Translations under genes and position numbers: made by a program | IMG/VR virus record: IMGVR_UViG_3300034175_000081 | Source of the DNA: a virus | DNA length: 51,677 nucleotides | Direction: 5' to 3' (one strand) | Part shown: piece by piece, positions 15,770 to 46,097 of the stretch | Layout of the letters: every line of letters begins with the position of its first letter | Numbering within the stretch: position 1 is the stretch's first letter | Notes under the pieces: model-generated | What the model was told of the DNA's origin: nothing | The model's input: only the letters and a program-made list of their open reading frames with translations | Databases searched by the model: none

Positions 15770-15801
15770 TAGGTGACGGCCTCCACAAGGGAGGCCATTC
15801 A

Positions 15802-15975
15802 ATGCGCGCTATCATTTCCAAACACCTGACCGGCGCATTGCTCGCGCCTGGTGCCCTGATCGCCCTATCGGCATGCGACCGCACGTCGACCATCAACCCC
15901 CCGCCCGCGAACAGCTCGACCCCCGGCACGAACACGACCGCGCCGCACGAACCGGCGATGCCGTCCGACGATTGA
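15802..15975 (+). CDS. Small lipoprotein (57 aa; below the ORF-track cutoff)
   Basis: Strong SD aagggagg (15787..15794). Hand translation gives MRAIISKHLTGALLAPGALIALSACDRTSTINPPPANSSTPGTNTTAPHEPAMPSDD, with lipobox L-S-A-C. Confidence 0.6.
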   Translation: MRAIISKHLTGALLAPGALIALSACDRTSTINPPPANSSTPGTNTTAPHEPAMPSDD

Positions 15976-17133: not shown

Positions 17134-17547
17134 ATGGCCGCTTTTAATAAGTTCAATTCGTTCGTCGAGGCCATCGCCGAGAAGGGTCATAACCTCCAGG
17201 CTGACACCCTTAAAGTGATGCTGACGAACACGGCACCAGTCGCAACGAACACCGTCATTGCGAACATCGTCGAAATCGCGACCGGCAACGGTTACGCGGC
17301 CGGCGGCCCGCAAGCGACCGTGTCCAGCTCGGCGCAGACGGCCGGCGCTTATGCGTTGATCCTGGCCGACCTGGTCATCACCGCAGCCGGCGGTTCGATC
17401 GGTCCGGCGCGGTATGCGGTGCTCTACAATGCCACGGCCGGCTTGCTAATCGGCTGGTGGGATTATGGCGCGGCCTTCACCCTGGCCAGCGGGGAAACCC
17501 TCACGGTCGACTTCGACAACGCCGCCGGTGTCCTGACCCTCGCATAA
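17134..17547 (+). CDS. Hypothetical virion-associated protein (137 aa)
   Basis: SD gaagga. ORF track MAAFNKFNSFVEAIAEKGHNLQADTLKVMLTNTAP... First gene of the fibre/glycosidase cluster. Confidence 0.7.
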   Translation: MAAFNKFNSFVEAIAEKGHNLQADTLKVMLTNTAPVATNTVIANIVEIATGNGYAAGGPQATVSSSAQTAGAYALILADLVITAAGGSIGPARYAVLYNATAGLLIGWWDYGAAFTLASGETLTVDFDNAAGVLTLA

Positions 17548-17557
17548 GGCCGAACCG

Positions 17558-17800
17558 ATGAAGCTCCCCACGCCCGAAAAACTGCGCGCCCGGTTCGCCG
17601 AGCTGGCCGCCGATCGCGAAGCCGTGATGAACGCCACCGCGCCGTTGCGTGCCGAGCGCGACGACTTGTCGGCCGACACCGCGGCACGGGTCGCGCGCAT
17701 CGACGCGCAAATCGCCGAGCTGACCGAAGGGCTGTTCGACGCCGACAACGAAGCCGCCATGATCGCCCGCGCGCTCGGCGGCAAAACGGCCCTCGAATAG
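17558..17800 (+). CDS. Hypothetical helical protein (80 aa)
   Basis: ORF track; coiled-coil-like. Confidence 0.6.
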   Translation: MKLPTPEKLRARFAELAADREAVMNATAPLRAERDDLSADTAARVARIDAQIAELTEGLFDADNEAAMIARALGGKTALE

Positions 17801-24492: not shown

Positions 24493-24695
24493 GTCGAGTG
24501 CCAGAAACAGCGGTCAGGGTCGGTGATGTCGCAACAGCCGCAATGATCGTCCGAGTCCCATTCGACTTCATGGCCGTCGTCGGTCCAGGCGATATGGGGG
24601 CCGGCATGGTTGACCGCCAGCGGGCACCCGCGCAGCTCGCCGAGCCGGTTTTCGAACGGCCGCCTGGCCGGGGGCAGGACATGACACGCGGTCAA
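24489..24695 (-). CDS. Small Cys/His-rich protein (68 aa)
   Basis: TTG start in a TTGA overlap. Contains DDHCGCCDITDPDRCFWH. Confidence 0.55.
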   Translation of the reverse strand: MTACHVLPPARRPFENRLGELRGCPLAVNHAGPHIAWTDDGHEVEWDSDDHCGCCDITDPDRCFWHST

Positions 24696-25042
24696 CGCAC
24701 GTCGGCCAGGTCGGGGTCGCTCGGGTCAACGCCGTTCGCCTCGGCCATCGCCCGATAATTGTCGAACAGCTCCAGGCCGCCGCTTCGGTCGAGCCGGTCG
24801 AGCCGGTGGAATGAATAGGCCAGGCGAACGGCAAGGTTATGATCGGCCCCGCGCTCCAGGAACCCGGCGCACGCCATCGCGTCGCCGTCGGAAGTTTTGT
24901 GGCAAGTGAATATGCCGAACGACATATCGCGCGCGGTGGCGGCCAGCTCGCGAAACCGGTCGGGTCGAAACTCGCCTGGCGGGACATCGGTTCGCCAGGG
25001 GCAATTCGCGCACGGCCGGCGCGTAGCGGGAAGGTCGTTCAC
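24692..25042 (-). CDS. DUF6283-like protein (116 aa)
   Basis: GTG 25042 in a GTGA overlap with the RNase H stop. Contains RRPCANCPWRTDVPPGEF...FTCHKTSDGDAMACAGFL. The family assignment is from memory of the CxxCPWR pattern. Confidence 0.6.
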   Translation of the reverse strand: MNDLPATRRPCANCPWRTDVPPGEFRPDRFRELAATARDMSFGIFTCHKTSDGDAMACAGFLERGADHNLAVRLAYSFHRLDRLDRSGGLELFDNYRAMAEANGVDPSDPDLADVR

Positions 25043-25632
25043 GCCCCGACCTCCCGAGCCTGGCGAAGGCGTCGGCTTTCCTGTTCGCCGATCATCGCTT
25101 CGTGTTGCTCTTTGCGCTCGCGCCGCCGCTGTCGGCCCGCCACCTGTTCGACTAAGGCGTTGTAACCGGCCGGCTTGCGACCGTCGCGAATGGCGCTGCA
25201 AAGATGATCGCACCGGATATTATGGATCGCGTGCGGGTCCGCGCTGTCTAGCCGCTGGTGCCCCCTTACCCATTTCGCCCGCAACGCGATCCCGTGTCGC
25301 TCGGCCAGGTCCAGGACATAGCCGACGGCCTTTCCGATCGTCGGACACTTCGCGTTGCGCGCCGCGCCGTTGATCCGGCCGACCGCGCCGCGATTATCCG
25401 AACGCATCGTGACCAGGTCGCCGCCCTCCACAAGGCCGTTGATGCGCGCGAAGTGAAGGGCGTTCGCCATTGCCGCGGCCTCGACAGCGGTCGACGACGG
25501 GAAGTTCCCGCGCAGCGCGCCGGCCGATTCGTGACGCTCATCACCGCGCAGCACGACGCACGCCCACGCGCCCCGGCCGCCCTTCACAATGCTGGCGTCG
25601 GTGTAAATGTCGACGTTCACCCGACCAGCCAT
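25039..25632 (-). CDS. RNase HI-like ribonuclease H with a basic C-terminal tail
   Basis: The DEDD catalytic pattern is recognisable: VDIYTDAS (D), STAVEAAAMANAL (E), TMRSDNRG (D), WVRGHQ...IRCDHL (D). The C-terminus is RQRRRERKEQHEAMIGEQESRRLRQ. Confidence 0.8.
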   Translation of the reverse strand: MAGRVNVDIYTDASIVKGGRGAWACVVLRGDERHESAGALRGNFPSSTAVEAAAMANALHFARINGLVEGGDLVTMRSDNRGAVGRINGAARNAKCPTIGKAVGYVLDLAERHGIALRAKWVRGHQRLDSADPHAIHNIRCDHLCSAIRDGRKPAGYNALVEQVAGRQRRRERKEQHEAMIGEQESRRLRQAREVGA

Positions 25633-25997
25633 TCGAGTTCGGCGCGAATGCCGGGTCGAAGGTCCGTGGCGATGCGCTTCGCGACCATGTCGGCGACAAG
25701 CCCCGACACGTAGTCGGCCGCCCCCTCCCGGCGTTCGGTGCCGCGGAATTCATACACGACGCGCGCGACCCGGTCGCCGACTTGCACGTCGAACCCCTGT
25801 CGCACGGTATAGGGCGCGACATCGAACGACCCGTCGCGGAACGACGACACCGAAAGGTCGGGACTGTCGGGAAGGTGCACGACATAGCCGGCCCTCCGCA
25901 ACAGCTCGGCCGCGTTGGCAATCTCGCGCTCGGCGGCCTCACGCTCGGCGCGTTTCCATTCCGGTTCGCGCCATACCGTTTCGGGGGTCCGCGTCAC
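25617..25997 (-). CDS. Hypothetical protein (126 aa)
   Basis: GTG 25997 in a GTGA overlap with the upstream small TM ORF. The 3' end overlaps the RNase H start by 16 nt. Confidence 0.55.
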   Translation of the reverse strand: MTRTPETVWREPEWKRAEREAAEREIANAAELLRRAGYVVHLPDSPDLSVSSFRDGSFDVAPYTVRQGFDVQVGDRVARVVYEFRGTERREGAADYVSGLVADMVAKRIATDLRPGIRAELEWLVG

Positions 25998-26161
25998 CAG
26001 TGCACCAGCCCGCCGGTGACGGCGGCCATGATGGCGGCCCCGATGACCGCGGCCACTAGCAACAGGATTCCGCAACCCTCGGCCGTCGTGATGCGCTCCA
26101 GGGCGGCGTCGGCGGGGTCGGGCTGTTCGGTGTAAGGCTCGCGCCCGCGATAGTCGGTCAT
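25994..26161 (-). CDS. Small membrane protein (55 aa; below the ORF-track cutoff)
   Basis: Hand translation gives MTDYRGREPYTEQPDPADAALERITTAEGCGILLLVAAVIGAAIMAAVTGGLVHW. ATGA overlap upstream (26158..26161) and GTGA overlap downstream. Confidence 0.5.
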   Translation of the reverse strand: MTDYRGREPYTEQPDPADAALERITTAEGCGILLLVAAVIGAAIMAAVTGGLVHW

Positions 26162-26436
26162 CGTGTTTCGCCTTCGATCATGCCGCGAATGCGGGCGGTT
26201 GAGTCTTCAAGAGCGGTTTCGGCGGCCAGCTTGCACGACACCTTCGCCAGGCGGGCGCGCAGCGGATTCGAGCGACCCTCGACCTGGTCGGCCAGGACAC
26301 CGTTTTTCAGCTCGGCGCACTTCGCCGCGGTCGCGGCCGCCTGGCGGGATAGGTCGCTTTCCTCGGCCACCTGTCGGCAACCCGACATTGCGAGGGCCGC
26401 CATTAGCAGCGCGCCACCTAATCGAACGGTCATCAT
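26158..26436 (-). CDS. Lipoprotein (92 aa)
   Basis: MMTVRLGGALLMAALAMSGCRQV has lipobox M-S-G-C. SD agaggg. The perfect dyad lies 13 nt upstream of the ATG. Confidence 0.7.
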   Translation of the reverse strand: MMTVRLGGALLMAALAMSGCRQVAEESDLSRQAAATAAKCAELKNGVLADQVEGRSNPLRARLAKVSCKLAAETALEDSTARIRGMIEGETR

Positions 26437-26449
26437 CGGGTCACCCTCT

Positions 26450-26466
26450 ATTCGTTGTGCGCGAAT
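26450..26466. promoter_or_regulatory. Perfect dyad ATTCG-N7-CGAAT within the island's 30-nt internal intergenic gap (26437..26466)
   Basis: attcgttgtgcgcgaat. In minus sense it reads CGAAT-agagggtgacccg-ATG, i.e. the dyad abuts the SD of the lipoprotein gene with a 13-nt gap to the start codon. Confidence 0.65.
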
Positions 26467-26673
26467 TCATTCGGCCCGTTTGGCCAGGCTGTCAATGACG
26501 ATCGCGCGCGGCCTGGCCTGGACGTGCTCGATGTCGACGGCGGCCGACCTGGCCACGGTGCGCGCGTGCGCCTCGGCGGCGGGCACGTTGTCGAACGGCA
26601 GATTGCCCCACTGGCCGGGAAGCGACAGTCGGACGCCGGGAAGGTGCCGGTGCGTGGTCAGAATGAATTTCAC
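26467..26673 (-). CDS. Hypothetical protein (68 aa)
   Basis: GTG 26673 in a GTGA overlap. Sequence VKFILTTHRHLPGVRLSLPGQWGNLPFDNVP... Confidence 0.5.
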   Translation of the reverse strand: MKFILTTHRHLPGVRLSLPGQWGNLPFDNVPAAEAHARTVARSAAVDIEHVQARPRAIVIDSLAKRAE

Positions 26674-26867
26674 GACTCGACCACCGCGCCGCAGACATCG
26701 CATTCGAGTTCGATCGCCAAGCACGGCCCGCAAGGCCCCCTGTCGCCGTAGCATTCACACCCCGGCGCGGACTCGGGATAGTGCATGTCGCCGATGCAAG
26801 GCTTGCCGTCGAACAGGGCGGCGGGGTTGCCGCTTGTGATCCGGTTGCACCGGTCACCGTCATTCAT
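26670..26867 (-). CDS. Small Cys-rich protein (65 aa, 9 Cys)
   Basis: ATG 26867 in an ATGA overlap. Sequence MNDGDRCNRITSGNPAALFDGKPCIGDMHYPESAPGCECYGDRGPCGPCLAIELECDVCGAVVES. Confidence 0.55.
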   Translation of the reverse strand: MNDGDRCNRITSGNPAALFDGKPCIGDMHYPESAPGCECYGDRGPCGPCLAIELECDVCGAVVES

Positions 26868-27052
26868 TCCGATTGGTTCGGGCATGTCCATTCCTTCGGC
26901 TCGCCGGCCTCGCGCCACGCGCGAATCGCCGGAAGGCTGGTCGTGTCGACGCCCGCCCGGTGGGCGCGCGCTATGATGTTCTGACCCGGCGGCAACAGCT
27001 TGAACACGTTGCGGCCGAAGGTCGACGGGAGGCGGAAGGGGCGGCGGTTCAC
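26864..27052 (-). CDS. Hypothetical protein (62 aa)
   Basis: GTG 27052 in a GTGA overlap. High GC3 in this frame (gtg aac cgc cgc ccc ttc cgc ctc ccg...). Confidence 0.5.
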   Translation of the reverse strand: MNRRPFRLPSTFGRNVFKLLPPGQNIIARAHRAGVDTTSLPAIRAWREAGEPKEWTCPNQSE

Positions 27053-27321
27053 CGCGCGCCAGGGCTGAACACGGCCAGGCCGCCGTTCGACCGGGCCGCC
27101 GCGATCAGCTCGCCCGCGACATCGTTCACCAGCTCGCGACGCTCGGCCGCAAGCCGCTCGGCCCCTTCGTATGCGTCCAGGGCATCGGCCGCCGTGGTCA
27201 GGGCGTGCGCCGCGACCGCCGCCTGGTGCGCCAGCTCCCGGTCGCCCGCCATCCGAAGCCCCACGGCGATGTTCGCCGAGCGCTTGGCCTGTTCGCGCAT
27301 GCTGTCGGTTAGGCGACTCAT
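27049..27321 (-). CDS. Hypothetical helical protein (90 aa)
   Basis: ATG 27321 in an ATGA overlap. Sequence MSRLTDSMREQAKRSANIAVGLRMAGDRELAHQAAVAAHAL... Confidence 0.6.
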   Translation of the reverse strand: MSRLTDSMREQAKRSANIAVGLRMAGDRELAHQAAVAAHALTTAADALDAYEGAERLAAERRELVNDVAGELIAAARSNGGLAVFSPGAR

Positions 27322-27506
27322 GCCGCGACCAGCTCGAAAAAGGCATCCTTGCCGATGCCGTTGGTTTGCGTGGCGACGACCCCGGCCGCGCCCGCGTCGA
27401 TCGACGAAACGCGGGTCAGCTTCACGGGGCTGCCGTCGGCATCCTTGCCGGTGATTGTCATCCCCGCGCCAGTGCGGCGCGCGGTCCAGTTCGTGATTCG
27501 TTGCAT
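27318..27506 (-). CDS. Hypothetical protein (62 aa)
   Basis: ATG 27506 with ggagg 7 nt upstream. Sequence MQRITNWTARRTGAGMTITGKDADGSPVKLTRV... Confidence 0.6.
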   Translation of the reverse strand: MQRITNWTARRTGAGMTITGKDADGSPVKLTRVSSIDAGAAGVVATQTNGIGKDAFFELVAA

Positions 27507-27565
27507 GTTCGGTTCCTCCAGTGGTGCGGGCACCATGCCCGCGGGGGGTTAAGAATTCGTGCCGC

Positions 27566-28309
27566 TTACGCCGCGATCCCCGTGATTTCGGGAAGGGGGC
27601 GGCGCGACATCGACAGCGTGAAGCCAAGCTCGCGTTCTTTGGCGACATAGCGGCCATATAGTTCGGGGTTCAGGCGGGCGGCCGTGGTCAAGTCGGCCTC
27701 GCTCGCCATGATGCAGAAGCAACAGGAAAGGCGGGTCATCCCGGCGGCATACGCCCAATGCGGGGTTTCACCGGCGGCGGCGATGATCGCGAAGACCTCG
27801 CGCTCGGAAACGTCGTGGATCGGAAGCCAATCGAACCATTCTCGGCCCGCCTTGCTGTTGCGATCGTTGCGCTTGAACGCGACCAGCTTCGCGCGACCGC
27901 TCGACTCTTGCGCGCGCATTCCCATACACATGACGACCTGACCGCTGAATTCAGGATGCGCGGCCAGGTAGCGGCGCACTTCGCGTTCGATCGGCCCGCG
28001 CTTAAGGTCGGACGTGCACTGGCGGTTAGCCGGCGAAGGGAACATGCCGCGGCGGTCGACCATGTCGAAAAAGGTCGACGCCGGCTTGGCGATCACCAGC
28101 GGAAGGCCCGCGGTCGTCGCCTCGATATGCTCGATAACGCCTTCCCATTCGACGCCCTCTAGCGACGCGTGCACGACCAGGATTTGCGAGTCCGGCACGA
28201 CCTGGCGAACGGCGAGGGTCATCGCCTGGCTATCCTTGCCGGCGCTATGCGACAGAACGAAAAGCGCGCCGCTGTCGCGAAGGGCGATAACCTGGTCGAG
28301 GGTTTTCAT
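27566..28309 (-). CDS. PAPS-reductase-family PP-loop protein (247 aa), first gene of the reverse island
   Basis: PP-loop LSHSAGKDSQAM (SGGKDS-like, about 28232..28255). C-terminal Cys cluster TRLSCCFCIMAS. Overall length and order are typical of phage PAPS reductase-like proteins. Confidence 0.8.
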   Translation of the reverse strand: MKTLDQVIALRDSGALFVLSHSAGKDSQAMTLAVRQVVPDSQILVVHASLEGVEWEGVIEHIEATTAGLPLVIAKPASTFFDMVDRRGMFPSPANRQCTSDLKRGPIEREVRRYLAAHPEFSGQVVMCMGMRAQESSGRAKLVAFKRNDRNSKAGREWFDWLPIHDVSEREVFAIIAAAGETPHWAYAAGMTRLSCCFCIMASEADLTTAARLNPELYGRYVAKERELGFTLSMSRRPLPEITGIAA

Positions 28310-28322
28310 CGTGGCGCTTCCT

Positions 28323-28339
28323 ATTCGCTGCTGACGAAT
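28323..28339. promoter_or_regulatory. Perfect dyad ATTCG-N7-CGAAT, 13 nt upstream of the PAPS-reductase-like start codon
   Basis: attcgctgctgacgaat. In minus sense it reads CGAAT-aggaagcgccacg-ATG, the same geometry as at 26450..26466. Confidence 0.65.
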
Positions 28340-28351
28340 GATCGTATCGGC

Positions 28352-28369
28352 GCGTTTTGGCCAAAACGC
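28352..28369. promoter_or_regulatory. Perfect 18-bp palindrome GCGTTTTGGCCAAAACGC midway between two dyads
   Basis: Read directly. The centre (28360/61) lies 29.5 and 27.5 bp from the centres of the flanking ATTCG-N7-CGAAT sites. Confidence 0.55.
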
Positions 28370-28379
28370 AACAGGAATA

Positions 28380-28396
28380 ATTCGCGCGCAGCGAAT
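28380..28396. promoter_or_regulatory. Perfect dyad ATTCG-N7-CGAAT upstream of the scaffold/capsid operon
   Basis: attcgcgcgcagcgaat, 61 nt upstream of ATG 28458. Confidence 0.65.
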
Positions 28397-28457
28397 GAAC
28401 CCCGCGCGCGACCGTTCAGGCTGTCAGAAACACGCTCCCGTCGGCTATCTTTCGTGC

Positions 28458-29408
28458 ATGGAAATCGAAGTATTTCGCGCAGGAAACGCCGCCGCAAACG
28501 CGGCCGGGATCACCGCGGCCGACCTGGCCGACATCGCGGCGTTCGATTGCGCCGCGCATCCCGTGCCGAACGTCATCGGCCACCCGTTGACCGACAGCCC
28601 CGCGCGCGACCGCGTCGTGAAGTTCCGCGCCGAGGGCAACAGCCTATTCGCCGACGTGCCGGAAGCGTCGCCCGCATTCGCGCCGGTCGTCGAGGGCATC
28701 CGCAAGTCGGAAATCTTGAACCGGTCGATGGCGTTTTTTGGCAAGTCGCACCCGTCGAACCCGACGCCCGGCAAGCTCGCGCCGAAGCATCTAGGCTTCC
28801 TCGGCGGCGCGGCCCCCGGCGTGTTCGGAATGCCCCCGCTCGCGCAGTCGTTCGCCTTTTCGGCCGACGACGCGCTGTCGATCGCGGGCGACCCCGCCCC
28901 GGCGGTCGTGTTCGAAGCGGCTCCGACCGCCGTTATCACCTTTACCGAACCACCGGCGGCACCGGCCGCCCCGACCCTGGAGAATACCAACGTGACAGAG
29001 GCCGAACAGCTCGCCGCCGACAAGGCCAAGTTCGAAGCCGACAAGGCCGAGCACGACGCGAAGGTCGCGGCATTCGCCGCCGACCAGGCAACCGCCCGCA
29101 AGACGGCCAACGCCGCGACGGTCGACGGCCTGGTCGCCGCAACGAAGGTGCTCCCGTCGGATCGCGACGCCCTGGTCGAGGCGTTCAACGCCGCCGAGGA
29201 AGGTCAGGTGCTCGCATTCGCATCGGACGCCACCAAGGCCGTGTCGCCCGTTTCGATCATCGCCGGCATTCTCGCCAAGGGCGGGAACGTCGTCGAGCTG
29301 TCGGCCGACCCGCTGTCGCCGACCTTCGCCGCCCCGACGGACGCGACCGCCGCGGCCGCCGCGCTCGAAAAGGTCCGCGCCGACAAGCGCGCCAACTACG
29401 GCAAGTAA
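28458..29408 (+). CDS. Capsid scaffolding protein / prohead protease (GPO-like), tentative
   Basis: The N-terminus MEIEVFRAGNAAANAAGITAADLADIAAFDCAAHPVPNVIGHP resembles P2 GPO-type proteins. Ala-rich helical C-terminal half. Position is immediately upstream of decoration and major capsid genes. The start is uncertain: in-frame ATGs at 28338 and 28395 overlap the dyads. Confidence 0.65.
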   Translation: MEIEVFRAGNAAANAAGITAADLADIAAFDCAAHPVPNVIGHPLTDSPARDRVVKFRAEGNSLFADVPEASPAFAPVVEGIRKSEILNRSMAFFGKSHPSNPTPGKLAPKHLGFLGGAAPGVFGMPPLAQSFAFSADDALSIAGDPAPAVVFEAAPTAVITFTEPPAAPAAPTLENTNVTEAEQLAADKAKFEADKAEHDAKVAAFAADQATARKTANAATVDGLVAATKVLPSDRDALVEAFNAAEEGQVLAFASDATKAVSPVSIIAGILAKGGNVVELSADPLSPTFAAPTDATAAAAALEKVRADKRANYGK

Positions 29409-29451
29409 GCCGCCGCTCGCCGCCGCCAGTTAAGACAAAGGACCCGAGACA

Positions 29452-29889
29452 ATGCCCGCACTCCAGAACGTATTCCCGACCCGCATGGATGCCGGCTTGC
29501 CGGGTGGCGCGGCCATGTCGCGCTACAGCTCGGAAACGGGCATCGTCGAGGCCGCCGCGATTGCAGTCGGCGCGGCCGTGATGCGCGGCACCGACGCCCG
29601 CCAGATTAAGACCTTTGCGGCCGGCGGCGGCGCGTTCCTCGGCATCGCGCGCCAGGACAAGGGAATGACCACGGACTCGCTCCCGGTCACGAAGGTCGCC
29701 GCATACTACACGCACGCGTCGGGCGTGTTCGTCGCGTCCGAGGGCGCAATGGCGGTCGACGCACAGGTGCGGTTCAATACCGCAACCGGCAAGTTCACCA
29801 CCGCGGCCGCCAGCGGCACGGTCCTGGATTGCGTCGGCTGGACGGTGGAAACCCCGCCCGTCGGCAATATCGCGATCATCCGCCGCTAA
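29452..29889 (+). CDS. Head decoration/cement protein-like (DUF2190-like)
   Basis: SD aaagga. 145 aa, placed between the scaffold and major capsid genes. Contains GAAVMRGTDARQIK...GIARQD. Confidence 0.6.
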   Translation: MPALQNVFPTRMDAGLPGGAAMSRYSSETGIVEAAAIAVGAAVMRGTDARQIKTFAAGGGAFLGIARQDKGMTTDSLPVTKVAAYYTHASGVFVASEGAMAVDAQVRFNTATGKFTTAAASGTVLDCVGWTVETPPVGNIAIIRR

Positions 29890-29922
29890 GGCACGAAGCA
29901 AAGAGCTAGGGGCACCCTTACA

Positions 29923-30888
29923 ATGACCACCGCATTTCCGAACGCCACCGCCGCGCTTGGCTTCGTCACCGATCAAACCTTCCGCATTGCGACCGAAGTC
30001 GAGCGCGCCGAATATCCGGCGATCGACATCAACGACCTGGTCGTGGTCGAGACGGCCGGCGACCCGTGGGCGAACGGCATCGCACGCTTTACCCTGGACG
30101 GCACCGGCCAGGCCCGTTGGTACGCTGGCGGCGCTAACTCGATGCCGCTCGCCGACGTTCAGACCGGTTCTAGCGTGTTCGCCTATGACCTCGGCGCGCT
30201 CGGCTACGAATTCAATCTGGACAGCGTGAACAAGGCGCGGCTGGCGGGCATCAACCTATCGGATGAATTGGCCTTCTACGCTCGCGAGGGCGCAGAACAG
30301 TTCATCTATTATGTCGGCTTGCTCGGCGACCCGCTGCGCGGCCTGACCGGCCTCATCAACAACGCGCAGATCGTCCAGGGCAACGTTCCCGCCGACGGCG
30401 TTCAGAACGGCATTTCGGCCGGCACCGCGGCGTCGCGCCTGTTCGCGAACAAGACTCCGCAGCAAATCCTTCGCGACCTGAATTCGCTCATCGTCGCGCC
30501 GTTCAACGCGTCGAACCAAATCGCGATGGCCGACACGGTGCTACTGCCGTTCAGTGTCATGCAGTACCTTGACATCACGGTCATTCCGAACACGTCCGAG
30601 ACGTTGCTGACCTTCCTGAACCGGTCGAACAGCTACACCGCGCGCACCGGCCAGGCGATCCGCATCCGCGGCTTGCGCGAGCTGGAAACGGCGGGCGCGG
30701 GCGCGACCAAGCGGATGATTGCGTATGCGCGCAACGGCCGGGTCGCAAAGTTCCATATGCCGATGCCGTTCCAGTTCCTCCCCGTTTGGCAGAACGGCCC
30801 GATGAATTGGCTCGTGCCCGGCATCTTCCGCATCGGCGGCACCGACTGGACGCGGCCCGCCTCGGCGACCTACGCCGACGGCATCTAA
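29923..30888 (+). CDS. Major capsid protein (DUF2184-like)
   Basis: 321 aa, positioned after scaffold and decoration genes. The N-terminus (FVTDQTFRIATEVERAEYPAIDINDLV) and C-terminus (MPMPFQFLPVWQNGPMNW) resemble the DUF2184 major capsid family. Confidence 0.75.
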   Translation: MTTAFPNATAALGFVTDQTFRIATEVERAEYPAIDINDLVVVETAGDPWANGIARFTLDGTGQARWYAGGANSMPLADVQTGSSVFAYDLGALGYEFNLDSVNKARLAGINLSDELAFYAREGAEQFIYYVGLLGDPLRGLTGLINNAQIVQGNVPADGVQNGISAGTAASRLFANKTPQQILRDLNSLIVAPFNASNQIAMADTVLLPFSVMQYLDITVIPNTSETLLTFLNRSNSYTARTGQAIRIRGLRELETAGAGATKRMIAYARNGRVAKFHMPMPFQFLPVWQNGPMNWLVPGIFRIGGTDWTRPASATYADGI

Positions 30889-30929
30889 GCCGACCAGCTC
30901 GACCAGCCTCCAGAACAGGAAACGACACG

Positions 30930-31337
30930 ATGGCAGACGCCGACAGCAAGCCGACCAAGCGCAAGGTGACCAACCTCGACCAGGGGCCGCGCTTCGTGCA
31001 CGCCCTCGGCGTGATGACGGTCATTCCGCGCGGCGCGGCAATCACCGCAACGTTCACCGCGGCGGAAGTCGAGGAAATGACCGACGCGCAATGCAGCGAC
31101 AGCGAGGCCCCGCGCTTCGACGTGTCGACCGCCGAGGGTGACACCCCTCCCGGCCCCACCGAAGCCGAGGGCAAGCCCCTGGCAAGTCAGCCGCTCGCCG
31201 CCCTTCGCAAGATGGCGGCCGACGAAAATTTCGAGCTGACCGGCCGTAAGGACCCGACCACGCAAGCCGACTTGCCCGATTTGAAGTCGGCGGCCGACAT
31301 CGCCGCGGCGATCGAAGCGAAGCGCGCCGCGCAGTAA
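30930..31337 (+). CDS. Hypothetical protein (135 aa) with a C-terminal HeH/Rho-N-like motif
   Basis: ATG 30930 with SD caggaaa. Contains LAALRKMAADENFELTG. Followed by a double stop and a hairpin terminator. Confidence 0.65.
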   Translation: MADADSKPTKRKVTNLDQGPRFVHALGVMTVIPRGAAITATFTAAEVEEMTDAQCSDSEAPRFDVSTAEGDTPPGPTEAEGKPLASQPLAALRKMAADENFELTGRKDPTTQADLPDLKSAADIAAAIEAKRAAQ

Positions 31338-31360
31338 TAAACCCGGCCTGGCCGGATACG

Positions 31361-31396
31361 GGGGCGGGGTGGGCGAAAGCCTTCCCCGCCCTTTGT
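31361..31396 (+). terminator. Rho-independent terminator after the capsid gene block
   Basis: Stem ggggcgggg (31361..31369) pairs with ccccgccc(t) (31384..31392). An inner ggc-gaaa-gcc tetraloop hairpin is present. Followed by tttgtcg. Confidence 0.6.
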
Positions 31397-31413
31397 CGTG
31401 AGGGACCTTCCGC

Positions 31414-31902
31414 ATGCAGTACCTAACGAACCTGGAATATCTGGAGCGCTACACCGAAATCGAAACGGTGCGGCTGACCGACGCGGCGCGAACCGGCCAG
31501 GTCGACGACGAAAAGCTGTCGACGGCAATCGCCGACATGACGGAGGAAGCGAACGCCTATCTGGCCGGCCGCTACGTGCTCCCGATCGTCACCCCGCCCG
31601 AGCTGCTAAAGGGGATCGTGGCCGACCTGACTCGAGAGCGGTTGCACGGGACGAAGGCGGGGGCGGAAATCACCCGCCGCGCCGATCGCGCCCGCAAGCT
31701 GCTGTCGGACATCGCAGCGGGCCGCGCGAGCATCCCGGCACCGGTCGCCGGCACGGCCCCGGCGGAAGGCCCTAGCGGGTCGCCGGTGTCGGCGAACGAC
31801 CGCCGAGCGCGCGTGTTCACCGACGGCGCGCTGGCCGACTTCACCAGCCTAACCGGCTCGCGCTACGGCGGGACCGTGTTCGACGGCCCGCGGAATTGGT
31901 AG
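31414..31902 (+). CDS. Head-tail connector protein, DUF1320 / Mu gp36-like
   Basis: MQYLTNLEYLERYTEIETVRLTD...AIADMTEEANAYLAGRYVLPI matches the DUF1320 pattern. Confidence 0.75.
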   Translation: MQYLTNLEYLERYTEIETVRLTDAARTGQVDDEKLSTAIADMTEEANAYLAGRYVLPIVTPPELLKGIVADLTRERLHGTKAGAEITRRADRARKLLSDIAAGRASIPAPVAGTAPAEGPSGSPVSANDRRARVFTDGALADFTSLTGSRYGGTVFDGPRNW

Positions 31903-31903
31903 G

Positions 31904-32467
31904 ATGGCGCGCGGCGTCAAATTCGAAGCGAAGCTCATCACGCGCGACGCCTATCGCGTGTTGCGCCAGCTTCGGAACCTCGGCGAAAACCCCGCGCCGT
32001 TGCTCGACCAGTGGGGCGGCATCCTGGAGGCGTCGACCCGCGACCGGTTCCGCACCGGGCGGGGGCCTGGCGGGGTGCCCTGGCCGCCGTCGAAGCGGGT
32101 GCTAGGCATCGGGAACCACGGGCCGAACAACGGCCGCACGCTGGTCGACAAGGGCAATCTAGAACGGTCGGTGCGGTACGAAGTCCAGGGCCGCCGGTTG
32201 CTGGTCGGTGTCGACGGTGCGAGCGAGTCGACCAAGCACGCGGCCGCGCACCAGTTCGGCGTTCAGCGGTCGACCGTCGTCGTGGAACACTGGCGCATCG
32301 TCACACAAGCGTTCGGCGTGCCGCTCCCGAACCCGGTCCTGGTGCGGGTCCGCGGCCACCCGGTCAAAATGAACCTACCCGCGCGCCCCTTCCTCGGCAT
32401 CGACAATGACGACCGGCGCGAGCTTACCGCGGCCGGTCGCGCATACCTGAAAGGCTTCCTGAAATGA
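31904..32467 (+). CDS. Virion morphogenesis protein (Mu G-like, Phage_tail_S)
   Basis: STRDRFRTGRGPGGVPWPPSKR...TLVDKGNLERSV...AAAHQFG matches the family pattern (rF....sPdG.pW.pl...L..sG.L..s....a.iHqfG). Confidence 0.75.
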   Translation: MARGVKFEAKLITRDAYRVLRQLRNLGENPAPLLDQWGGILEASTRDRFRTGRGPGGVPWPPSKRVLGIGNHGPNNGRTLVDKGNLERSVRYEVQGRRLLVGVDGASESTKHAAAHQFGVQRSTVVVEHWRIVTQAFGVPLPNPVLVRVRGHPVKMNLPARPFLGIDNDDRRELTAAGRAYLKGFLK

Positions 32468-32913
32468 TCGACCTATCGGCTTGCCGCGCCCGCGCGCGCA
32501 CGATCGCAACAGAGCTGGAACCGGGGGCGGGTGCCGGCTTCCTGGCCGTGTCCGACTGGTCGAGCGCGACCGATGCGATTATGAACGGCGACGCCCCGAC
32601 GCCCGCGCTTTACGTGTCGCTGTCGCGCGAACAGCCCGACAAAAACCGTATGACCAGCGGCGGCCGCGCGCAGCGGGTGCGCTCGACCGTGTCGCTTCTG
32701 TTCTGCCTGGCGGCCGAGCGCGCCAGCGGCGAGCGTGCCGACCCGATCGAAATCGCCCGCGGCGCGCTCATCGACAGCTTCGTGGGATACAGCCCCCCCG
32801 GTGCGGTCGCGGCCTTTGATTATGCGGGATATTCGATCCGCCAGGAGGATGACGGCTTGGTATGGGGCGAAGTCCTGGTGTCAACGTCGTGGGACCTTCG
32901 CAAGGCCACCTGA
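32464..32913 (+). CDS. Hypothetical tail-completion/neck protein (149 aa)
   Basis: ATGA overlap. Lies between the morphogenesis and tail tube genes. Confidence 0.6.
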   Translation: MIDLSACRARARTIATELEPGAGAGFLAVSDWSSATDAIMNGDAPTPALYVSLSREQPDKNRMTSGGRAQRVRSTVSLLFCLAAERASGERADPIEIARGALIDSFVGYSPPGAVAAFDYAGYSIRQEDDGLVWGEVLVSTSWDLRKAT

Positions 32914-32981
32914 CCGTTCAGGCTTTCCGCCCTCCAGGGGGGGCCGTATTCTCGCCCCTGACACGTAGGAGCGCGAACGCA

Positions 32982-33380
32982 ATGGATGACACCGTAAACG
33001 ACCAGGCCGAGGCCGCCCCCGCCCTCGCGCCCGACGTTGCCGAGCTGGCCGACCAGGGCTTCGCTATTCAGGGGCAATTCCCCGCAAACCATCGACTGCG
33101 CGCCGAAGCGCTGGTCGCCGCGAACCTGACCAGCGATCCCGACGGGATTATCCCCGACGACCTGGTGACCGACGCGCGCGACCGGATCGCCGCCGACGCC
33201 GCCGCGCTGAAAGAGCAACAGGCCGCCGAACGCAAGGATGCCGGCGAGTTCAAAGGCGTGAAGCTGCCGAAGCTGGTCGAGCTGGCCAACGCCGAGGGCA
33301 TCGCCCTGACCGCCCCCGACGATCGCGACGCGGTCATTGTCGACATCGTCGCGGCCCGCGCCGCGCGCAACGAAGGTTAA
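32982..33380 (+). CDS. Hypothetical acidic protein (132 aa) with an HeH-like motif
   Basis: ATG 32982 with SD taggagcg. Contains VKLPKLVELANAEGIALT. Confidence 0.6.
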   Translation: MDDTVNDQAEAAPALAPDVAELADQGFAIQGQFPANHRLRAEALVAANLTSDPDGIIPDDLVTDARDRIAADAAALKEQQAAERKDAGEFKGVKLPKLVELANAEGIALTAPDDRDAVIVDIVAARAARNEG

Positions 33381-33386
33381 TCCGAC

Positions 33387-34343
33387 ATGGCAAAGAGTTT
33401 CGACCAAAAGGCCGTTCTTTTCAAAACCGAAGCGACCGAAGGGACGGACTCGCTTCCCACCGGTGCCGCGAACAGCATCCGAACCGTCGACTACACGCCG
33501 ACGTTCATGGATGCCGAACAGCGCACGCGAAACATCGACACGGCGTTCAAGGGCGCGAAGCCGGCCTATCTCTACGCCATCAAGCGCGGCGCGCAGTTCG
33601 GCGTCGAAATGGCCGGCGCGGGCACCGCGACCGGAATTCCGGCGTGGATGCTGCTAAACAAGATGGCGCGTTTCGGTTCGGGCGTGGTCGGCGCGTCGTC
33701 GGTCGTTCAGTCGCTTGCGGCGACGGCGGAATCGCAAACGCACTATGCCGCGTTCCTGGATGAAGTGAACGCCGCGAATTCGTTCCTGGCGAAGACGATC
33801 GGCGGCCGCTCCACCCTCGGGTTCGTCATCGAAGACGACGACTTCCCGCGGTTCAATTATGGCTACCTCGGCCGCGCGCCCGCGTTGCTCGGCGAGGAAG
33901 GCGCAATGCCCGTGTCGGTCGTCGCCGGCCAGGCCGCGCCCGTGATGGCGTCGACCGAAAATACCACGTTCACGCTCGGCGGTTTCGCCCTCCCGCTTCG
34001 CCGGGTGGAAATGAACAGCAACGCCGAGCTGGCGCTCCGATCGTTGATCGGTCCACAGGACTCGATGGCCTATTCTGACGATGCATGGGGCGGGACGATC
34101 GTCGGCGAGCTTCCGAGCCTGGCCGCTAAAAACTACTTCACGAACATTCGCCCCGGCACGATGATGCCGATGCAGATCGTGCACGGCATCGTCGCCGGCA
34201 ACATCGTGCAAATCGACGCGCCGCAGGTCCAGATTTCGGGCAACGTGTCGCTGACGAATGAACAGGGCAAGGTCATGTTGAACATGCCCGTGACGTTGGT
34301 TCCGAACGCTGGTAACGACGAAATCGTGTTCACCAGCAAATAG
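33387..34343 (+). CDS. Major tail (tube) protein, tentative
   Basis: 318 aa, located directly upstream of the frameshifted chaperone pair and the tape measure gene. Confidence 0.65.
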   Translation: MAKSFDQKAVLFKTEATEGTDSLPTGAANSIRTVDYTPTFMDAEQRTRNIDTAFKGAKPAYLYAIKRGAQFGVEMAGAGTATGIPAWMLLNKMARFGSGVVGASSVVQSLAATAESQTHYAAFLDEVNAANSFLAKTIGGRSTLGFVIEDDDFPRFNYGYLGRAPALLGEEGAMPVSVVAGQAAPVMASTENTTFTLGGFALPLRRVEMNSNAELALRSLIGPQDSMAYSDDAWGGTIVGELPSLAAKNYFTNIRPGTMMPMQIVHGIVAGNIVQIDAPQVQISGNVSLTNEQGKVMLNMPVTLVPNAGNDEIVFTSK

Positions 34344-34355
34344 GAGCTACCGCGT

Positions 34356-34820
34356 ATGTTCGACCTGGCCGAAAAGCGGCTTGTATGGATCTCGGTAACG
34401 TGGCCGGGCCTCGCAAGTGAGGGTGACAAGCTCGCCGAGCCGGTCGAACATAAAGCGGAATTTCAGGTTGAGTTGGTCGACATCGACCAGTTCCAGTTCC
34501 TGTTCGTGTCGCCGATCGCCGAAGACGGCACGAAACACCTTTGGGCGACCGACGAAGCGTTCGCCGCCTGGTCGAAGGGCGAAGTGAACGACCGCTATCG
34601 CGCGCGCGAGCTGACTTCCGACTGGCGGGGCATCGCCTCCAATCGCGTGAAGGTGCCCTATTCCCCCGACGCTATGAACGCGCTCATGGGAAAGCCGAAT
34701 TTCAGCAAGGCTTACTTTCAAGCATATATGGAAGCCTGGAACGCGATCGCCGAGACGCGCGCGGGAAACTCCGAAGGCTCGCCCGAAACTGGATCGACGG
34801 GCGAGCCGCAACCGTCCTAA
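34356..34820 (+). CDS. Tail assembly chaperone (G-like)
   Basis: SD aggag. Sits between the tube and tape measure genes. A slippery heptamer lies near its 3' end. Confidence 0.8.
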   Translation: MFDLAEKRLVWISVTWPGLASEGDKLAEPVEHKAEFQVELVDIDQFQFLFVSPIAEDGTKHLWATDEAFAAWSKGEVNDRYRARELTSDWRGIASNRVKVPYSPDAMNALMGKPNFSKAYFQAYMEAWNAIAETRAGNSEGSPETGSTGEPQPS

Positions 34821-35134
34821 CCGATACGCCGGAATTCCTGGCCGAATGCCGAATGCTCGGCATTGAACCGGGATCGCTAGGGGGCAAGCGCGAGCACGTT
34901 CCCGACCCGGTCCCGGTGTGGCCTGACATGCAAGCGGGCGTTGCGATATTCATGTCGCTGTCGACACAATGGCGCATGGCCAGCGGCTTGTCGGGCACCT
35001 TCGCAACCGGCCTGGACTATCAAGCAATCGAACCGACGGCCCGCATGATCGGTGTCGAGCTGTCGCCCGCTGTCTTTTCGGACGTGCGAGCGCTAGAGTC
35101 GGCCTCGCTCCAGATATGGAACGCGCGGCGCTAA
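34356..35134 (+). CDS. Tail assembly chaperone frameshift product (GT-like; -1 shift at 34763..34769)
   Basis: After the slip on G GGA AAC, the -1 frame reads GKLRRLARNWIDGRAATVLTDTPEFLAECRMLGIEPG... and stays open to 35134, matching the tail of ORF-track entry 34541..35134. Confidence 0.7.
34763..34769 (+). promoter_or_regulatory. Programmed -1 ribosomal frameshift slippery heptamer G_GGA_AAC
   Basis: The zero-frame codons are gcg gga aac, which fit X_XXY_YYZ. The frame relationship (start coordinates mod 3: 0 to 2) corresponds to a -1 shift. Confidence 0.7.
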
Positions 35135-35150
35135 CGGGACGGTTCAGGCA

Positions 35151-38100
35151 ATGGCAGATTTCGACCTAGCCTATTCGATCGACGGCGACGCCACGGGGGC
35201 GGTCGCCGCGGTCGACCAGGTCACCGGCGCGAACGCCCGCCTGGAGGGCAGCACGGCGGGGCTTGCCGCCAAGTTCGGCCAGGTCGAGACGGCCAGCGGC
35301 CAGGCCGGTCAGGCGATGGCCACGGCGGCCGCGCAGTCGCAAGCCCTGGTCGTCGCGAATTCGAACCTGGCGGCGGCATCTAGCCGGCTGGTCGTGGCCG
35401 AAAACAACCTGGCGGCCGCGCACGCGAAGGCCGCGGCGGCGGCCGGCAACGATGCCGCCGAGCAAACCAAGCTGGCGGCCGCGGTCGACCGGGCGGCGGC
35501 ACAACAGGCCACGGCGGCGGCAAGCGTCATCCGCGCACAAGCTGGGGTCGCTCGCGCGATGAACACGACGACCGACGTGTCGCGCAATCAGCAGTTCGCA
35601 ATTCGCAACATCGGGCAACAGTTCGGCGACTTCGGACTCCAGGTCGCCACCGGCCAGGACCCTATTCGCGCGTTTACGCAACAGGTCGGGCAGATGGGAT
35701 ACGCCCTCGGCACCCTGGAAAAGGGGCCGCTTGCCGGCGTCGGCAAGTTCCTGGTCGGGCCGTGGGGCATTGCCCTGACCGTCGGCGCGGCTATCGCGGC
35801 CCCGTTCATCGCGAAGCTATTCGAGGCCGGCTCGGCCGCCGCCGACAGTCGCGAAAAGCTGGAAACCGCAGCGACGGCCGCCGATTCCTACGGCCGCGCG
35901 CAATCGCAGCTCGGCGGAATTATCGACCTGACGACCGGCAAGCTGAAAACGCAAAACGGCGTTCTGATTCAGACTATCAAGCTACAGGCGCAGCTCAATT
36001 TGCTGGACGCCGAAAAGCGCATCCGAGACGCCACGACCGCGAAAGGCACGGTGCTAAAGAAGCCGACGGGAACGGCTGGCCTCGGCGGGTTGCCCGGTGG
36101 CGACATCGACAAGGCGGTCGCGGCCGGCGCGCGGCGCGACCAGGGGCAACGGTTCATCGACCTGGCGCGGCGCGACCTCGGCAACGTGCTGAACAATGGC
36201 GCGCTCGCGAAGTCCGACCCGAAAGCATACGCGGCCGCGATCGACGCGCAGCTAGATAAGACAATCTCGCAGCTCGACCGGATCGCCATCGGCGGCAAGG
36301 TCGCCGGGCAAAGCCTGGCCGACGCTAAATTGCAGTTCATCGGCCTGGCGACCGCCGGCACGGACAAGGCGGCCGCGCTCGATAGCCTGGCCGTCCTGGC
36401 CGGCGGCCCGGTGCCGGATTCGCTGAAACCCTACGCGCGCGATAAGAAGCCGCCGAAGCCGAAGAAGCCGCCGAAGCCGAAGTCGACGGAGGCGCGCGAC
36501 GAATTCGGCCGCGACACTGACGACCGCATTGCGAACATCGTCGCGCAGTTCGACAACACGCCGCCCGTGTTGCGCCAGGTCAATCAACAGGTCGCGCAGC
36601 TCGACGACCTGGTCGATGACCTTCGTCGAAAGAAGCCGCCGAATTTCGAAAAGCTGATCGCCGACGCCGAGGAAGCGAAGGTCGTCGTGCGTGATGGCCT
36701 CAACAAGCCGTTCGACGACTATATCGACGCGCAGAAGGATTCGCTGGCGGTCCTACGCCTGACCGCACAAGGGCGGTACGCCGAGGCCGAAGCGCTAAAG
36801 ATTGTCCAGGGGATCGAACAGCGGGTCGGCCCGATCACCGTCGCGCGCAAAGACGCGGTGCTTGCGACGGTCCAGGCGGTCGAAGCCGAACAGCGCGCGA
36901 TCGACATCGCTCGCGAAAAGACCGAACGCTATCTGGACGCCCTCGGCGGTATCAAGTCGGTGCTCCAGGACGCCACGCAAGACTTCGTCCGCGGCGACCT
37001 CGGCAAGCTGCTACAGTCGCCGGGCAAGCTGCTAGACGTGTTCCAGACCCTAAAGGGTCAAGAGCTGTTCGAAGACATATTCGGCGACACGTTCCGCAAG
37101 CTCCAGGACCAGGTCGCCGGCACGAACCCCGTAGAAGACGCGTCGCAACGCATGTCGGACGCGCTCGACCTGGTCGTCGACCAGTCCGCGCCGACGGTGA
37201 AGGCGTTCGCCGATGTCGAAGCGGCGGCCGTGGGGGCCGCTGGCGCGCTTGCCGGCGTTCGGGCACCGTCGGGAGGCCCTGGCCTTGCCGCGGCGGCTGG
37301 CGGCCCCTCGGCGGCGGCAAACGACAACTTCGACGCCGTGCTTGCGAGCGTGAAGGGCATCGGGGGCGCACAGAACATTGTCGCCGGTGACGGGCCGCCG
37401 ATCGACCTCGGCGATTCCGGCGACATCATCGTGTCGGCTACCCGGTTTCGCGATGGCGCGAAGGCGTTCGAAGACGCAACCGACCTGTTCAACGTGGCCG
37501 GGAAGCGCATCGGGAGCAAGATCGACAGCTTAATCGACCCCAAAGGCGAGTTCTTTTCGAAGCTCGGAAGCTCGCTCGGCAACGCCCTGGAGGGCGCGAG
37601 CGCGGGGCGCGCGGTCGGCTCGACCTTCGGCGGCAAGGGCGGAACGATCGGCGGGGGAATCGGCGGCCTGGCCGGGCTGTTGCGCGACGGAAGCGTGCTC
37701 GGGAAGTCGGGCGCGGGCGGCGCGGTGTCGGGCATCGCCGACAAGATTTCGCAGGGCCTTCCGCAGCTCGCGCTTGCCAGTCAGGCGAACCAGGCAATCG
37801 GGAAAGTGTTCGGGTTTAAGGGCGGGCCGCTCGGCGTGTTCACCAGCCTGTTTGACGGCCTGTTCAAGAAAGAAAAAAACGGGTCGTCGACCATCCGCGT
37901 GCAGAACGGCGAGGCCGTCGCCGGCACCGCCACCGGCAAGGGATCGGACGCGCGCAAACAAGCCGGCGTGCTCGGCGGGTCGCTGGCCGACGGCCTCAAT
38001 TCCCTGGTCGACCAGCTCGGCGGCCAACTCGGCGAAGCAAGCGTGTCGATTGGCTATCGGCCAGGCCACAAGGCCCCGGCATACCGCGTCGACCCCACCG

Positions 38101-38957: not shown

Positions 38958-38966
38958 GGAATTGCC

Positions 38967-43271: not shown

Positions 43272-43272
43272 C

Positions 43273-43683: not shown

Positions 43684-43732
43684 GCGGCGGGGCGGTTCGG
43701 CATTATGACGGCCGGCGAAGGAGTCCAGAACG

Positions 43733-44521: not shown

Positions 44522-44524
44522 CCG

Positions 44525-45265: not shown

Positions 45266-45266
45266 G

Positions 45267-45371
45267 GTGACGGCGGGCGACTACGTCATGTTATGGGCGA
45301 CCGGCGCGGCTATAGCGGTCGGCGGCGCGTTGTATTTCTGCGTCACCGTAGGGGGTCGGAATGATGAATAG
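45267..45371 (+). CDS. Very small hydrophobic ORF (34 aa; 27 aa from the internal ATG), speculative
   Basis: Hand translation gives VTAGDYVMLWATGAAIAVGGALYFCVTVGGRNDE. Overlaps the start of the first holin-like gene. Confidence 0.25.
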   Translation: MTAGDYVMLWATGAAIAVGGALYFCVTVGGRNDE

Positions 45372-46094: not shown

Positions 46095-46097
46095 ACT

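Follow-up and report, generated by a model that had tools for sequence, protein, structure and literature searches.

An intergenic dyad as putative operator of a phage-encoded regulator in a 51.55-kb phage genome

Genome organization

Positions 28310–28457 of the virus genome IMGVR_UViG_3300034175_000081 form a 148-bp gap between a reverse-strand gene island and the capsid operon, in which two copies of the inverted repeat ATTCG-N7-CGAAT, hereafter the dyad, flank an 18-bp palindrome. The whole stretch analyzed, of 51,677 nucleotides, is referred to as the window. An exact 127-bp direct repeat is found at both of its ends (1–127 is identical to 51551–51677), implying that the window is a complete, circularly assembled phage genome of ~51.55 kb; its G+C content is 66%. 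Genes were called from codon usage, and by these calls the non-coding share amounts to 7.3%. The genome is therefore mostly coding, as stated in the initial annotation, but the non-coding fraction exceeds the roughly 5% given there. The transcription units are arranged as follows.

early-left operon: Exo VIII-like and AAA_24 proteins among its products
early-right operon: Cro-like g4, a methyltransferase, RusA, a replication protein and Mor-like g10, then terminase and portal
24692–28309, reverse strand: island with PAPS reductase, RNase H and small lipoproteins
28458–47048: capsid-tail-lysis operon
47045–47446, reverse strand: g66, a single leftward zinc-ribbon gene, after which come g67–g68

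No integrase, CI-type repressor or partition gene was detected among the genes of the whole window, which has no tRNA genes and in which no att site was found.

Distribution of the dyad

The dyad copies considered in this work are listed below.

2209–2225: early dyad with one mismatch, TTTCGCATCGAACGAAT, on the side of the leftward gene g3
2244–2260: early dyad ATTCGGTTGCGGCGAAT, whose spacer holds the -35-like TTGCGG (2250–2255) of a putative g4 promoter
26450–26466: island dyad, between g40 (stop at 26467) and g39 (ATG 13 nt off)
28323–28339: dyad A, overlapping the -10/start region of a putative leftward promoter, with the g44 ATG 13 nt downstream
28380–28396: dyad B, starting 17 bp after the forward-strand TTGGCC of the palindrome
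47483–47499: dyad in the gap between g66 (reverse) and g67 (forward), filling the spacer of the putative leftward g66 promoter and abutting the -35 of the rightward g67 promoter

When both strands were scanned exhaustively, exactly five perfect copies were recovered, starting at 2244, 26450, 28323, 28380 and 47483, in exact agreement with the positions that had been read by eye. Only 0.16 copies are expected from dinucleotide shuffles of the genome, and none of 100 shuffles reached five. The initial annotation, which had named such a comparison as a check, had set the chance expectation at 0.05, somewhat too low against the 0.11–0.16 obtained here. With up to one mismatch, 11 copies are present versus 2.87 expected, and the copy reported earlier at 2209–2225 is among them. 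As had also been claimed, every perfect copy is intergenic by the codon-usage gene calls and none lies in coding DNA (P = 2e-6 for five of five, given 7.3% non-coding); the split between intergenic and coding DNA is 5/0 for perfect, 2/4 for one-mismatch and 2/27 for two-mismatch copies. When all 5-Nx-5 dyads (x = 0–12) were scanned de novo, ATTCG-N7-CGAAT ranked second (P = 1.3e-7), and it alone among the enriched dyads is confined to intergenic DNA.

The most enriched dyad of the genome is CGACC-N-GGTCG, with 13 copies versus 1.7 expected. Its sites at 893, 1061, 9099, 14734, 25766, 26280, 30033 and 36605 lie within called genes, and five more were found. This enrichment may stem from biased codon or peptide usage, or from a site related to modification or restriction.

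Conservation in related phages

The following related genomes carry the dyad.

IMGVR_UViG_3300035156_000182, the relative: syntenic with the window, proteins mostly 55–90% identical
L252: a Logan contig, g4 90% identical
IMGVR_UViG_3300017446_000012, also an ENA contig (L247, L255, L259), the third lineage: capsid 77% and g4 56% identical

In the relative, dyads are found at all orthologous places with equal spacings: dyads A and B lie 57 bp apart, and the g66 dyad lies 36 nt from the ATG, as in the window (38 nt in L247). Both members of the early pair are retained there, each with one mismatch; the A-to-T variant of the 2209 copy is the same at L138:17728 of the relative, and this copy is identical in L252. 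An additional dyad of the relative (L246:19802–19818) stands ahead of a small lipoprotein gene, the homologue of g25. The third lineage has two dyads in the early gap, one before g66 and four in or beside the island, and their consensus is longer, ATTCGC(A/G)-N3, with C at position 6 in 13 of 14 half-sites. Motif conservation in related phages, a check named in the initial annotation, is thus borne out by orthologous dyads in three lineages.

In six orthologous pairs of dyads from the window and the relative, the half-sites are identical at 59 of 60 positions and the spacers at 21 of 42 (Fisher P = 2.7e-9). The combination of invariant half-sites and free spacers points to the sequence-specific recognition of two half-sites by a dimer. 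With its 17 bp, two conserved half-sites and freer centre, the dyad has the build of an imperfect-palindrome operator.

The binder could be encoded by the host, the dyad being the site of a transcription factor recruited by the phage, for example a LysR-type protein or another global regulator. LysR-type sites follow the pattern T-N11-A, which is contained in the core TTCG-N7-CGAA. The motif, however, is limited to one small phage clade and is absent from more distant cousins, which comprise L253, L256, L257 and 80 loci with ~50% TerL identity (1.13 Mb in all). Its consensus differs between phage lineages, being ATTCGC(A/G) in the third, and L253, whose regulators are changed, has lost the motif. 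A pattern scan of viral contigs for paired dyads returned only the one relative and low-GC chance matches, and the same scan of 596 Gbp of genomes gave at least 120 scattered matches, in keeping with chance, with no taxonomic focus and no homology to the window, which therefore offer no clue to the host. A literature search for the motif found nothing relevant. We regard recognition by a host factor as distinctly improbable.

In L253, which lacks the dyad, the -35 of the predicted g4 promoter (TTGCGC-16-TATAGG; L253:9930–9975) is covered by another near-perfect palindrome, ACGTTGCGCGCAATGT, which may be a diverged operator paired with the changed g4 helix of that phage. The closest GenBank phages are those of Rhizobium and Aminobacter, with a capsid identity of ~40%, and a megablast search against GenBank phages gave no match. 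A metagenome scan with g45 returned only 25–31% identical proteins and no usable control regions, and a protein search with g10 as query returned only g10 itself.

Predicted promoter geometry at the dyad sites

Offsets of the dyad from conserved -35-like hexamers are consistent in the three lineages, and the promoter elements below were placed by this phylogenetic footprinting.

2273–2278, forward strand: putative -10 CTACAC of the early-right (g4) promoter; position kept in L252, the relative and L247
26490–26495, reverse strand: consensus -35 TTGACA of a putative internal g39 promoter, 23 nt upstream of the 26450 dyad
47499–47505: TTGGCAA, overlapping -35 hexamers TTGGCA (forward, g67) and TTGCCA (reverse, g66); kept in the relative, TTGACA and TTGTCA in L247
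47522–47527, forward strand: putative -10 TATTGA of the g67 promoter, which places the dyad centre at about -43

At the putative g4 promoter, the dyad spacer carries TTGCGG, TTGGCG or TTGCCG (TTGnnG) in the three lineages, followed after 16–17 bp by the -10-like CTACAC, TATAGC or TATAGG. A larger inverted repeat that overlaps the 2244 dyad (CGCAACCG/CGGTTGCG) was rejected, its left arm not being kept in L252. In the island, the layout TTGACA-17 nt-GAATGA-dyad-ribosome-binding site (RBS)-ATG recurs in the relative and twice in L259. In four independent cases (26450 of the window, its orthologue in the relative, and 2258 and 5600 of L259), the dyad is preceded at a distance of exactly 23 nt by the consensus hexamer TTGAC(A/G) and followed after 13–15 nt by an RBS and an ATG. 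This spacing places the dyad of the island promoters at about -6 to +11, and the predicted g39 and g44 promoters would both be covered by it over roughly this range, with RBS and ATG directly after.

Between g66 and g67, TTGCCA (TTGTCA in L247) abuts the dyad in the three lineages, and the dyad itself makes up the 17-bp spacer between the -35 and -10 elements assigned to the g66 promoter. In the opposite direction, the g67 arrangement TTGGCA-17 bp-TATTGA/C is conserved, and the block TGGGCGTATTG is kept where the 16 nt before it diverge. The predicted transcription starts of the genome are at ~2285, ~28458, ~32959 and ~47534 on the forward strand and at ~26460, ~28334 and ~47470 on the reverse strand. 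The position of the dyad is accordingly variable, yet always on or beside putative core promoter elements, which argues for repressor operators rather than for the site of a fixed-position activator.

An 8-mer of the -10 block of the g67 promoter, GCGTATTG, also follows the two-mismatch dyad ATTGCGTGGGAACGAAT in the g12/g13 gap (8374–8401). This weak dyad and a one-mismatch dyad at 9770, likewise in a gap, were both rejected as compatible with chance, and the one at 8374 is not kept in the relative.

The proximity to start codons raises an alternative in which the transcribed dyad would fold into a 5-bp stem with a 7-nt loop before the RBS and serve as translational operator, processing site or stabilizer, possibly bound by g66. 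Several copies do lie 13–17 nt before an ATG and directly after the preceding stop (26450; L246:19802 in the relative), at two variant sites (L138:17761, L246:20061) the transcribed strand can still pair through G-U, and a g66 homologue is annotated as a nucleic-acid-binding zinc ribbon in one source. The hairpins of the 17-mers are weak, however (-1.1 to -6.3 kcal/mol), and mostly no better than those of shuffled sequences. The near-invariant stems show no compensatory change while the loops are free, which is the reverse of typical RNA elements. Furthermore, one dyad contains a -35 hexamer and another equals a promoter spacer, if the promoters are placed correctly; no Rfam match was obtained; and g66 has homologues in dyad-less phages and a predicted fold without structural match. 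As intrinsic terminators the dyad stems are weak, and only dyad B was flagged as terminator-like, at the expected background rate. An RNA role of the dyad is unlikely, and we give it hardly any weight.

The 148-bp region and a probable late-promoter element

Besides dyads A and B, the following elements bear on the region.

28352–28369: perfect 18-bp palindrome GCGTTTTGGCCAAAACGC with the core TTGGCCAA
28357–28362, forward strand, and 28364–28359, reverse strand: overlapping -35-like TTGGCC hexamers in the palindrome core
28410–28422, forward strand: GACCGTTCAGGCT, copy 1, 13 nt after dyad B and upstream of g45
28446–28451, forward strand: putative -10 TATCTT of a late capsid promoter, which predicts a start at ~28458
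32912–32924, forward strand: GACCGTTCAGGCT, copy 2, in the g51/g52 gap; TATTCT follows at 32947–32952
35138–35150: weak copy of GACCGTTCAGGCT

The dyads are centred at 28331 and 28388 and the palindrome at 28360.5, so that the arms measure 29.5 and 27.5 bp, and the nearly symmetric flanking described in the initial annotation is confirmed. The dyad-palindrome-dyad control region proposed there is present in the window, but its layout is not conserved as a whole: dyad A is missing from the third lineage, which retains only the core and dyad B. Of the two dyads, B alone is shared by all three lineages. The core itself, TTGG(C/T)CCAAA, is kept in the window, the relative and L259; the core TTTGGCCAAA occurs a single time in the window and is not significant by itself. 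We infer that the two TTGGCC hexamers act as -35 elements of two divergent promoters. The start of dyad A is 19–20 bp away from the leftward hexamer, with RBS and ATG coming after the dyad; in the relative, dyad A also lies 13 nt from the ATG, though the downstream first gene is non-homologous. The distance from the forward-strand TTGGCC to dyad B is 16 bp in the relative and L259, compared with 17 bp in the window. A longer g45 starting at an ATG inside dyad A (28338) was rejected, the frame being broken and a stop present in the relative.

Downstream of dyad B lies a predicted late promoter, which the initial annotation had not described. The element GACCGTTCAGGCT precedes both g45 and g52 in all three lineages (further copies at L258:8470 and 13001, and at L259:8415 and 14349). 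A TAT-type -10 follows it after 22–23 nt in five of six copies (TATCTT, TATTCT, TATTCT, TATACG, TATAAA) and no -35 hexamer is present, placing the block at about -48 to -36 from the predicted start, with its centre at ~-42. In Mor-dependent promoters, an activator site centred at -43.5 replaces the -35, whereas a recognizable -10 is kept (PMC4390567). The element GACCGTTCAGGCT shares this geometry (centre near -43, no -35, a recognizable -10), its dyad symmetry being weak or absent. It is a probable activator-dependent late-promoter element and, judged from its position, likely the target of the Mor-like protein g10.

The predicted start coincides with the ATG of g45 (28458), before which no Shine-Dalgarno sequence was found; the g45 mRNA is therefore probably leaderless. 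The g45 homologue of L259 has the same start geometry, and that of the relative has a Shine-Dalgarno sequence (AAGGTG) instead. In L259 of the third lineage, an HNH-like gene is inserted after dyad B', between it and the GACCGTTCAGGCT block, which indicates that dyad B and GACCGTTCAGGCT are separable. Overall, the 148-bp gap appears to be a compound region, in which two operators flank a shared -35 palindrome and are followed by a separate late promoter.

Candidate binding proteins

Two helix-turn-helix (HTH) proteins of the early-right operon come into question as binders of the dyad.

2310–2627, forward strand: g4, Cro-type HTH protein, first gene of the early-right operon; favoured binder
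6181–6561, forward strand: g10, Mor-like late activator of 126 aa with a C-terminal HTH; alternative binder

The sequence of g4 gives a weak Pfam match to YdaS/Cro-type HTH proteins. Its AlphaFold2 model has a core predicted local distance difference test (pLDDT) value of ~90, and its best PDB matches are the Cro proteins of Xfaso-1 (3bd1), N15 (6on0/2hin, a DNA complex included) and P22 (1rzs), with Foldseek probabilities up to 1.00, template modelling scores of 0.66–0.70 on the target and root mean square deviation values of 1.9–2.5 Å. Cro proteins bind imperfect palindromes as dimers, in lambda with the symmetry axis on a base pair, and H6 of the lambda Cro recognition helix contacts base pairs 6–7 (PMC6649833). 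In g4, Ser at H2 and His at H5 of the helix are kept in the dyad-bearing phages, and H5 is changed to Gln in L253. In the third lineage H6 is changed from Gly to Arg, exactly where positions 6–7 of the half-site become fixed. The g4 gene starts 49 nt after the 2244 dyad, an arrangement shared by L252, the relative and L247.

The protein g10 matches PHROG 836, "late transcriptional activator" (E = 7.6e-13), and its match to the Pfam Mor family (PF08765; E = 0.003, 18 bits) falls below the cut-off of 24.9, its homologues being flagged "Mor (faint)". Its HTH, CSERTVY[A/K]KR, is invariant in the dyad-bearing phages, changed in dyad-less L253, and gains a Lys in the third lineage. Were g10 to bind the dyad, it would form a bifunctional early-to-late switch, activating from sites near -43 (g67 and perhaps the capsid operon) and repressing from those over core elements; the PHROG match and the HTH pattern are both in line with this. 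Mor/C sites, however, are fixed and replace the -35, whereas the dyad is found to contain the -35, to fill the spacer or to cover the start. It departs from the Mor/C type of promoter in its variable position and in the good -35 hexamers beside it, and even at g67, the only place with a centre near -43, the promoter is equipped with a good -35 (TTGGCA or TTGACA). The separate element GACCGTTCAGGCT, with true Mor-type geometry before the late genes (~-42, no -35, a TAT-type -10), would be the better target, and the Pfam Mor match is below the cut-off. We therefore consider dyad binding by g10 a minority reading, though the strongest competitor of g4; g10 probably serves GACCGTTCAGGCT and not the dyad.

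The zinc-ribbon protein g66 was rejected as regulator: it has no HTH, its model (pLDDT 82), a zinc ribbon with a helical hairpin, matched no PDB entry at E < 2, and dyad-less phages encode homologues as well. It is rather a putative regulated gene and an unlikely binder. The conservation of the recognition helix between the window and the relative was discarded as discriminator, since g4, g10 and g66 are all conserved. From the three regulators that the initial annotation had put forward, g4 thus emerges as favoured, based on the repressor-type geometry of the dyads, its position behind an operator-embedded promoter and the better target available for g10. The chances that g4 is the dyad binder appear about even or marginally above.

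Taken together, we place slightly on the probable side of even the reading that ATTCG-N7-CGAAT is the operator of a phage-encoded dimeric HTH regulator, most likely g4, which would act mainly as a repressor at sigma70-type early and accessory promoters. Several observations weigh against it. A consensus sigma70 scan of four dyad regions found no promoter, and all promoters are for this reason those deduced by phylogenetic footprinting. The structural matches of g4 have weak E values (0.085 at best), and its model was built from a four-sequence alignment. No CI partner and no lysogeny gene were found in the genome; neither g3, g2 and g1, the divergent genes, nor the extra first gene of the cousins matched an HTH or repressor family. 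It is unusual for Cro-type operators to stand ahead of a capsid operon. The H6 covariation goes back to one evolutionary event, and the HTH of g10 tracks the presence of the dyad at least as well as the g4 helix does. Mor, a dimer of 129 aa, recognizes a site centred at -43.5 in which a GC-rich 6-bp spacer separates two 5-bp inverted repeats (PMC4390567), and the 5-N7-5 dyad with its GC-rich spacer resembles this 5-N6-5 site, as does the 126-aa g10 its protein, with the dyad centre at ~-43 at the g67 promoter. Finally, the role of dyad B is ambiguous, as it could lie on the -10 of the TTGGCC promoter or, seen from the late promoter, at -70.

Proposed regulatory mechanism

If g4 is the regulator, the early promoters (early-left, g4, g44, g39, the rightward TTGGCC promoter and g66) would fire first. 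The g4 protein would then accumulate, occupy the dyads and shut the promoters that they control, its own among them, because the -35 of the g4 promoter lies inside a dyad and would allow for autoregulation. Dyad A would guard the leftward promoter of the accessory island and dyad B the rightward one. At g66/g67, where the -35 hexamers of the two promoters overlap, blocking of g66 may release the shared -35 for g67. The capsid and tail genes would be transcribed from the GACCGTTCAGGCT late promoters, driven independently and probably with g10.

The operator proposal of the initial annotation is, at the level of sequence, supported by conservation, specificity and placement, but the four transcription units that it counted are too few. 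The putative regulon comprises the early-left, g4, g39, g44, rightward TTGGCC and g66/g67 promoters.

The 17-bp operator with an ATG 13–17 nt later stands ahead of non-homologous accessory genes, namely PAPS reductase (another gene in the relative), small lipoproteins and an HNH gene. It is conceivable, though doubtful, that in a phage devoid of CI and lysogeny genes, portable promoter-operator-RBS cassettes link promoters across the genome to a switch operated by a single Cro-type protein. In that case, the cassettes would be units that wire newly acquired genes into the timing programme of the phage, and at paired promoters with a shared -35 the repressor would flip the direction of transcription.

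Comparison with known systems

By analogy, the system would work like a lambdoid Cro/operator system and, for the late genes, like Mu Mor/C. As in the lambdoid Cro/OR systems (lambda, P22, N15, Xfaso-1), a small HTH protein is the first gene of the early-right operon, and 17-bp imperfect palindromes with conserved half-sites lie over promoter elements in a divergent early control region. Their symmetry axis passes through a base pair, which is also the case in lambda, and the predicted g4 fold matches the all-alpha Cro proteins. By contrast, neither a divergent CI nor a lysogeny module was found in the window, its early region has two sites instead of three, and putative operators are also located far from the immunity region, in the accessory island, before the capsid operon and at g66/g67.

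The likeness to Mu Mor/C lies in the 126-aa Mor-like g10 with its C-terminal HTH, in the dyad build of 5 bp, a GC-rich spacer and 5 bp, and in predicted late promoters that lack a -35 and have a conserved element centred at ~-42. Conversely, the spacer of the ATTCG dyad has 7 bp and not 6, the dyad takes no fixed promoter position, GACCGTTCAGGCT has the Mor-type position but no clear dyad, and the Pfam Mor score of g10 is below the cut-off.

One small repressor with an operator at many promoters, some of them in short intra-operon gaps, also recalls regulons of the KorA and L5 gp71 type. The stoperators of mycobacteriophage L5, bound by gp71, form a global repressor regulon whose sites are asymmetric, oriented and far more numerous. 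KorA of plasmid RP4 is described as one small repressor with a short operator repeated at many promoters across the element (PMC2665229). The phages described here differ in having only 5–8 symmetric sites per genome, and KorA, a plasmid protein, belongs to another family.

A repressor-operator switch is a familiar kind of viral gene switch, and general knowledge of how phage gene switches work is unchanged by it; the phage clade is new. The points of interest are modest: the predicted Cro-type operators over four regions of a CI-less phage and the operator-RBS cassettes at gene-swap boundaries. If confirmed, the map of operators, early and late promoters and two candidate regulators would be a nearly complete regulatory map for an uncultured clade of ~51.5-kb phages, and a compact case of a Cro-type repressor without CI at genome-wide sites. 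The 17-bp operator with its ~100-aa repressor, and the 13-bp late element with its 126-aa activator, might be reusable as orthogonal pairs of parts for high-GC hosts.

Gene swaps and accessory genes next to the dyads

Gene swaps between lineages seem to have their boundaries at operator cassettes. Swapped genes adjoin putative operators at 27566–28309 of the window (g44) and at L001:3300–3853, L259:7893–8411, L138:~17440–17719 and L247:4347–4622. The relative has a different first gene where the window has PAPS reductase, and the early-left operon of both cousins has a first gene of ~90 aa that is missing from the window.

Lipoprotein-type signal peptides (LSAC, MSGC, LCAC) are present in three small genes, g25 (15802–15975), g39 (26158–26436) and g67 (47585–47962). 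Both g39 and g67 lie directly downstream of putative dyad-controlled promoters, as does the g25 homologue of the relative. These genes may have superinfection-exclusion or envelope functions under the same regulator. At the spot of the extra dyad of the relative, the window carries an unrelated hairpin that includes the RBS (15779–15797; GGCCTCC-acaa-GGGAGGCC).

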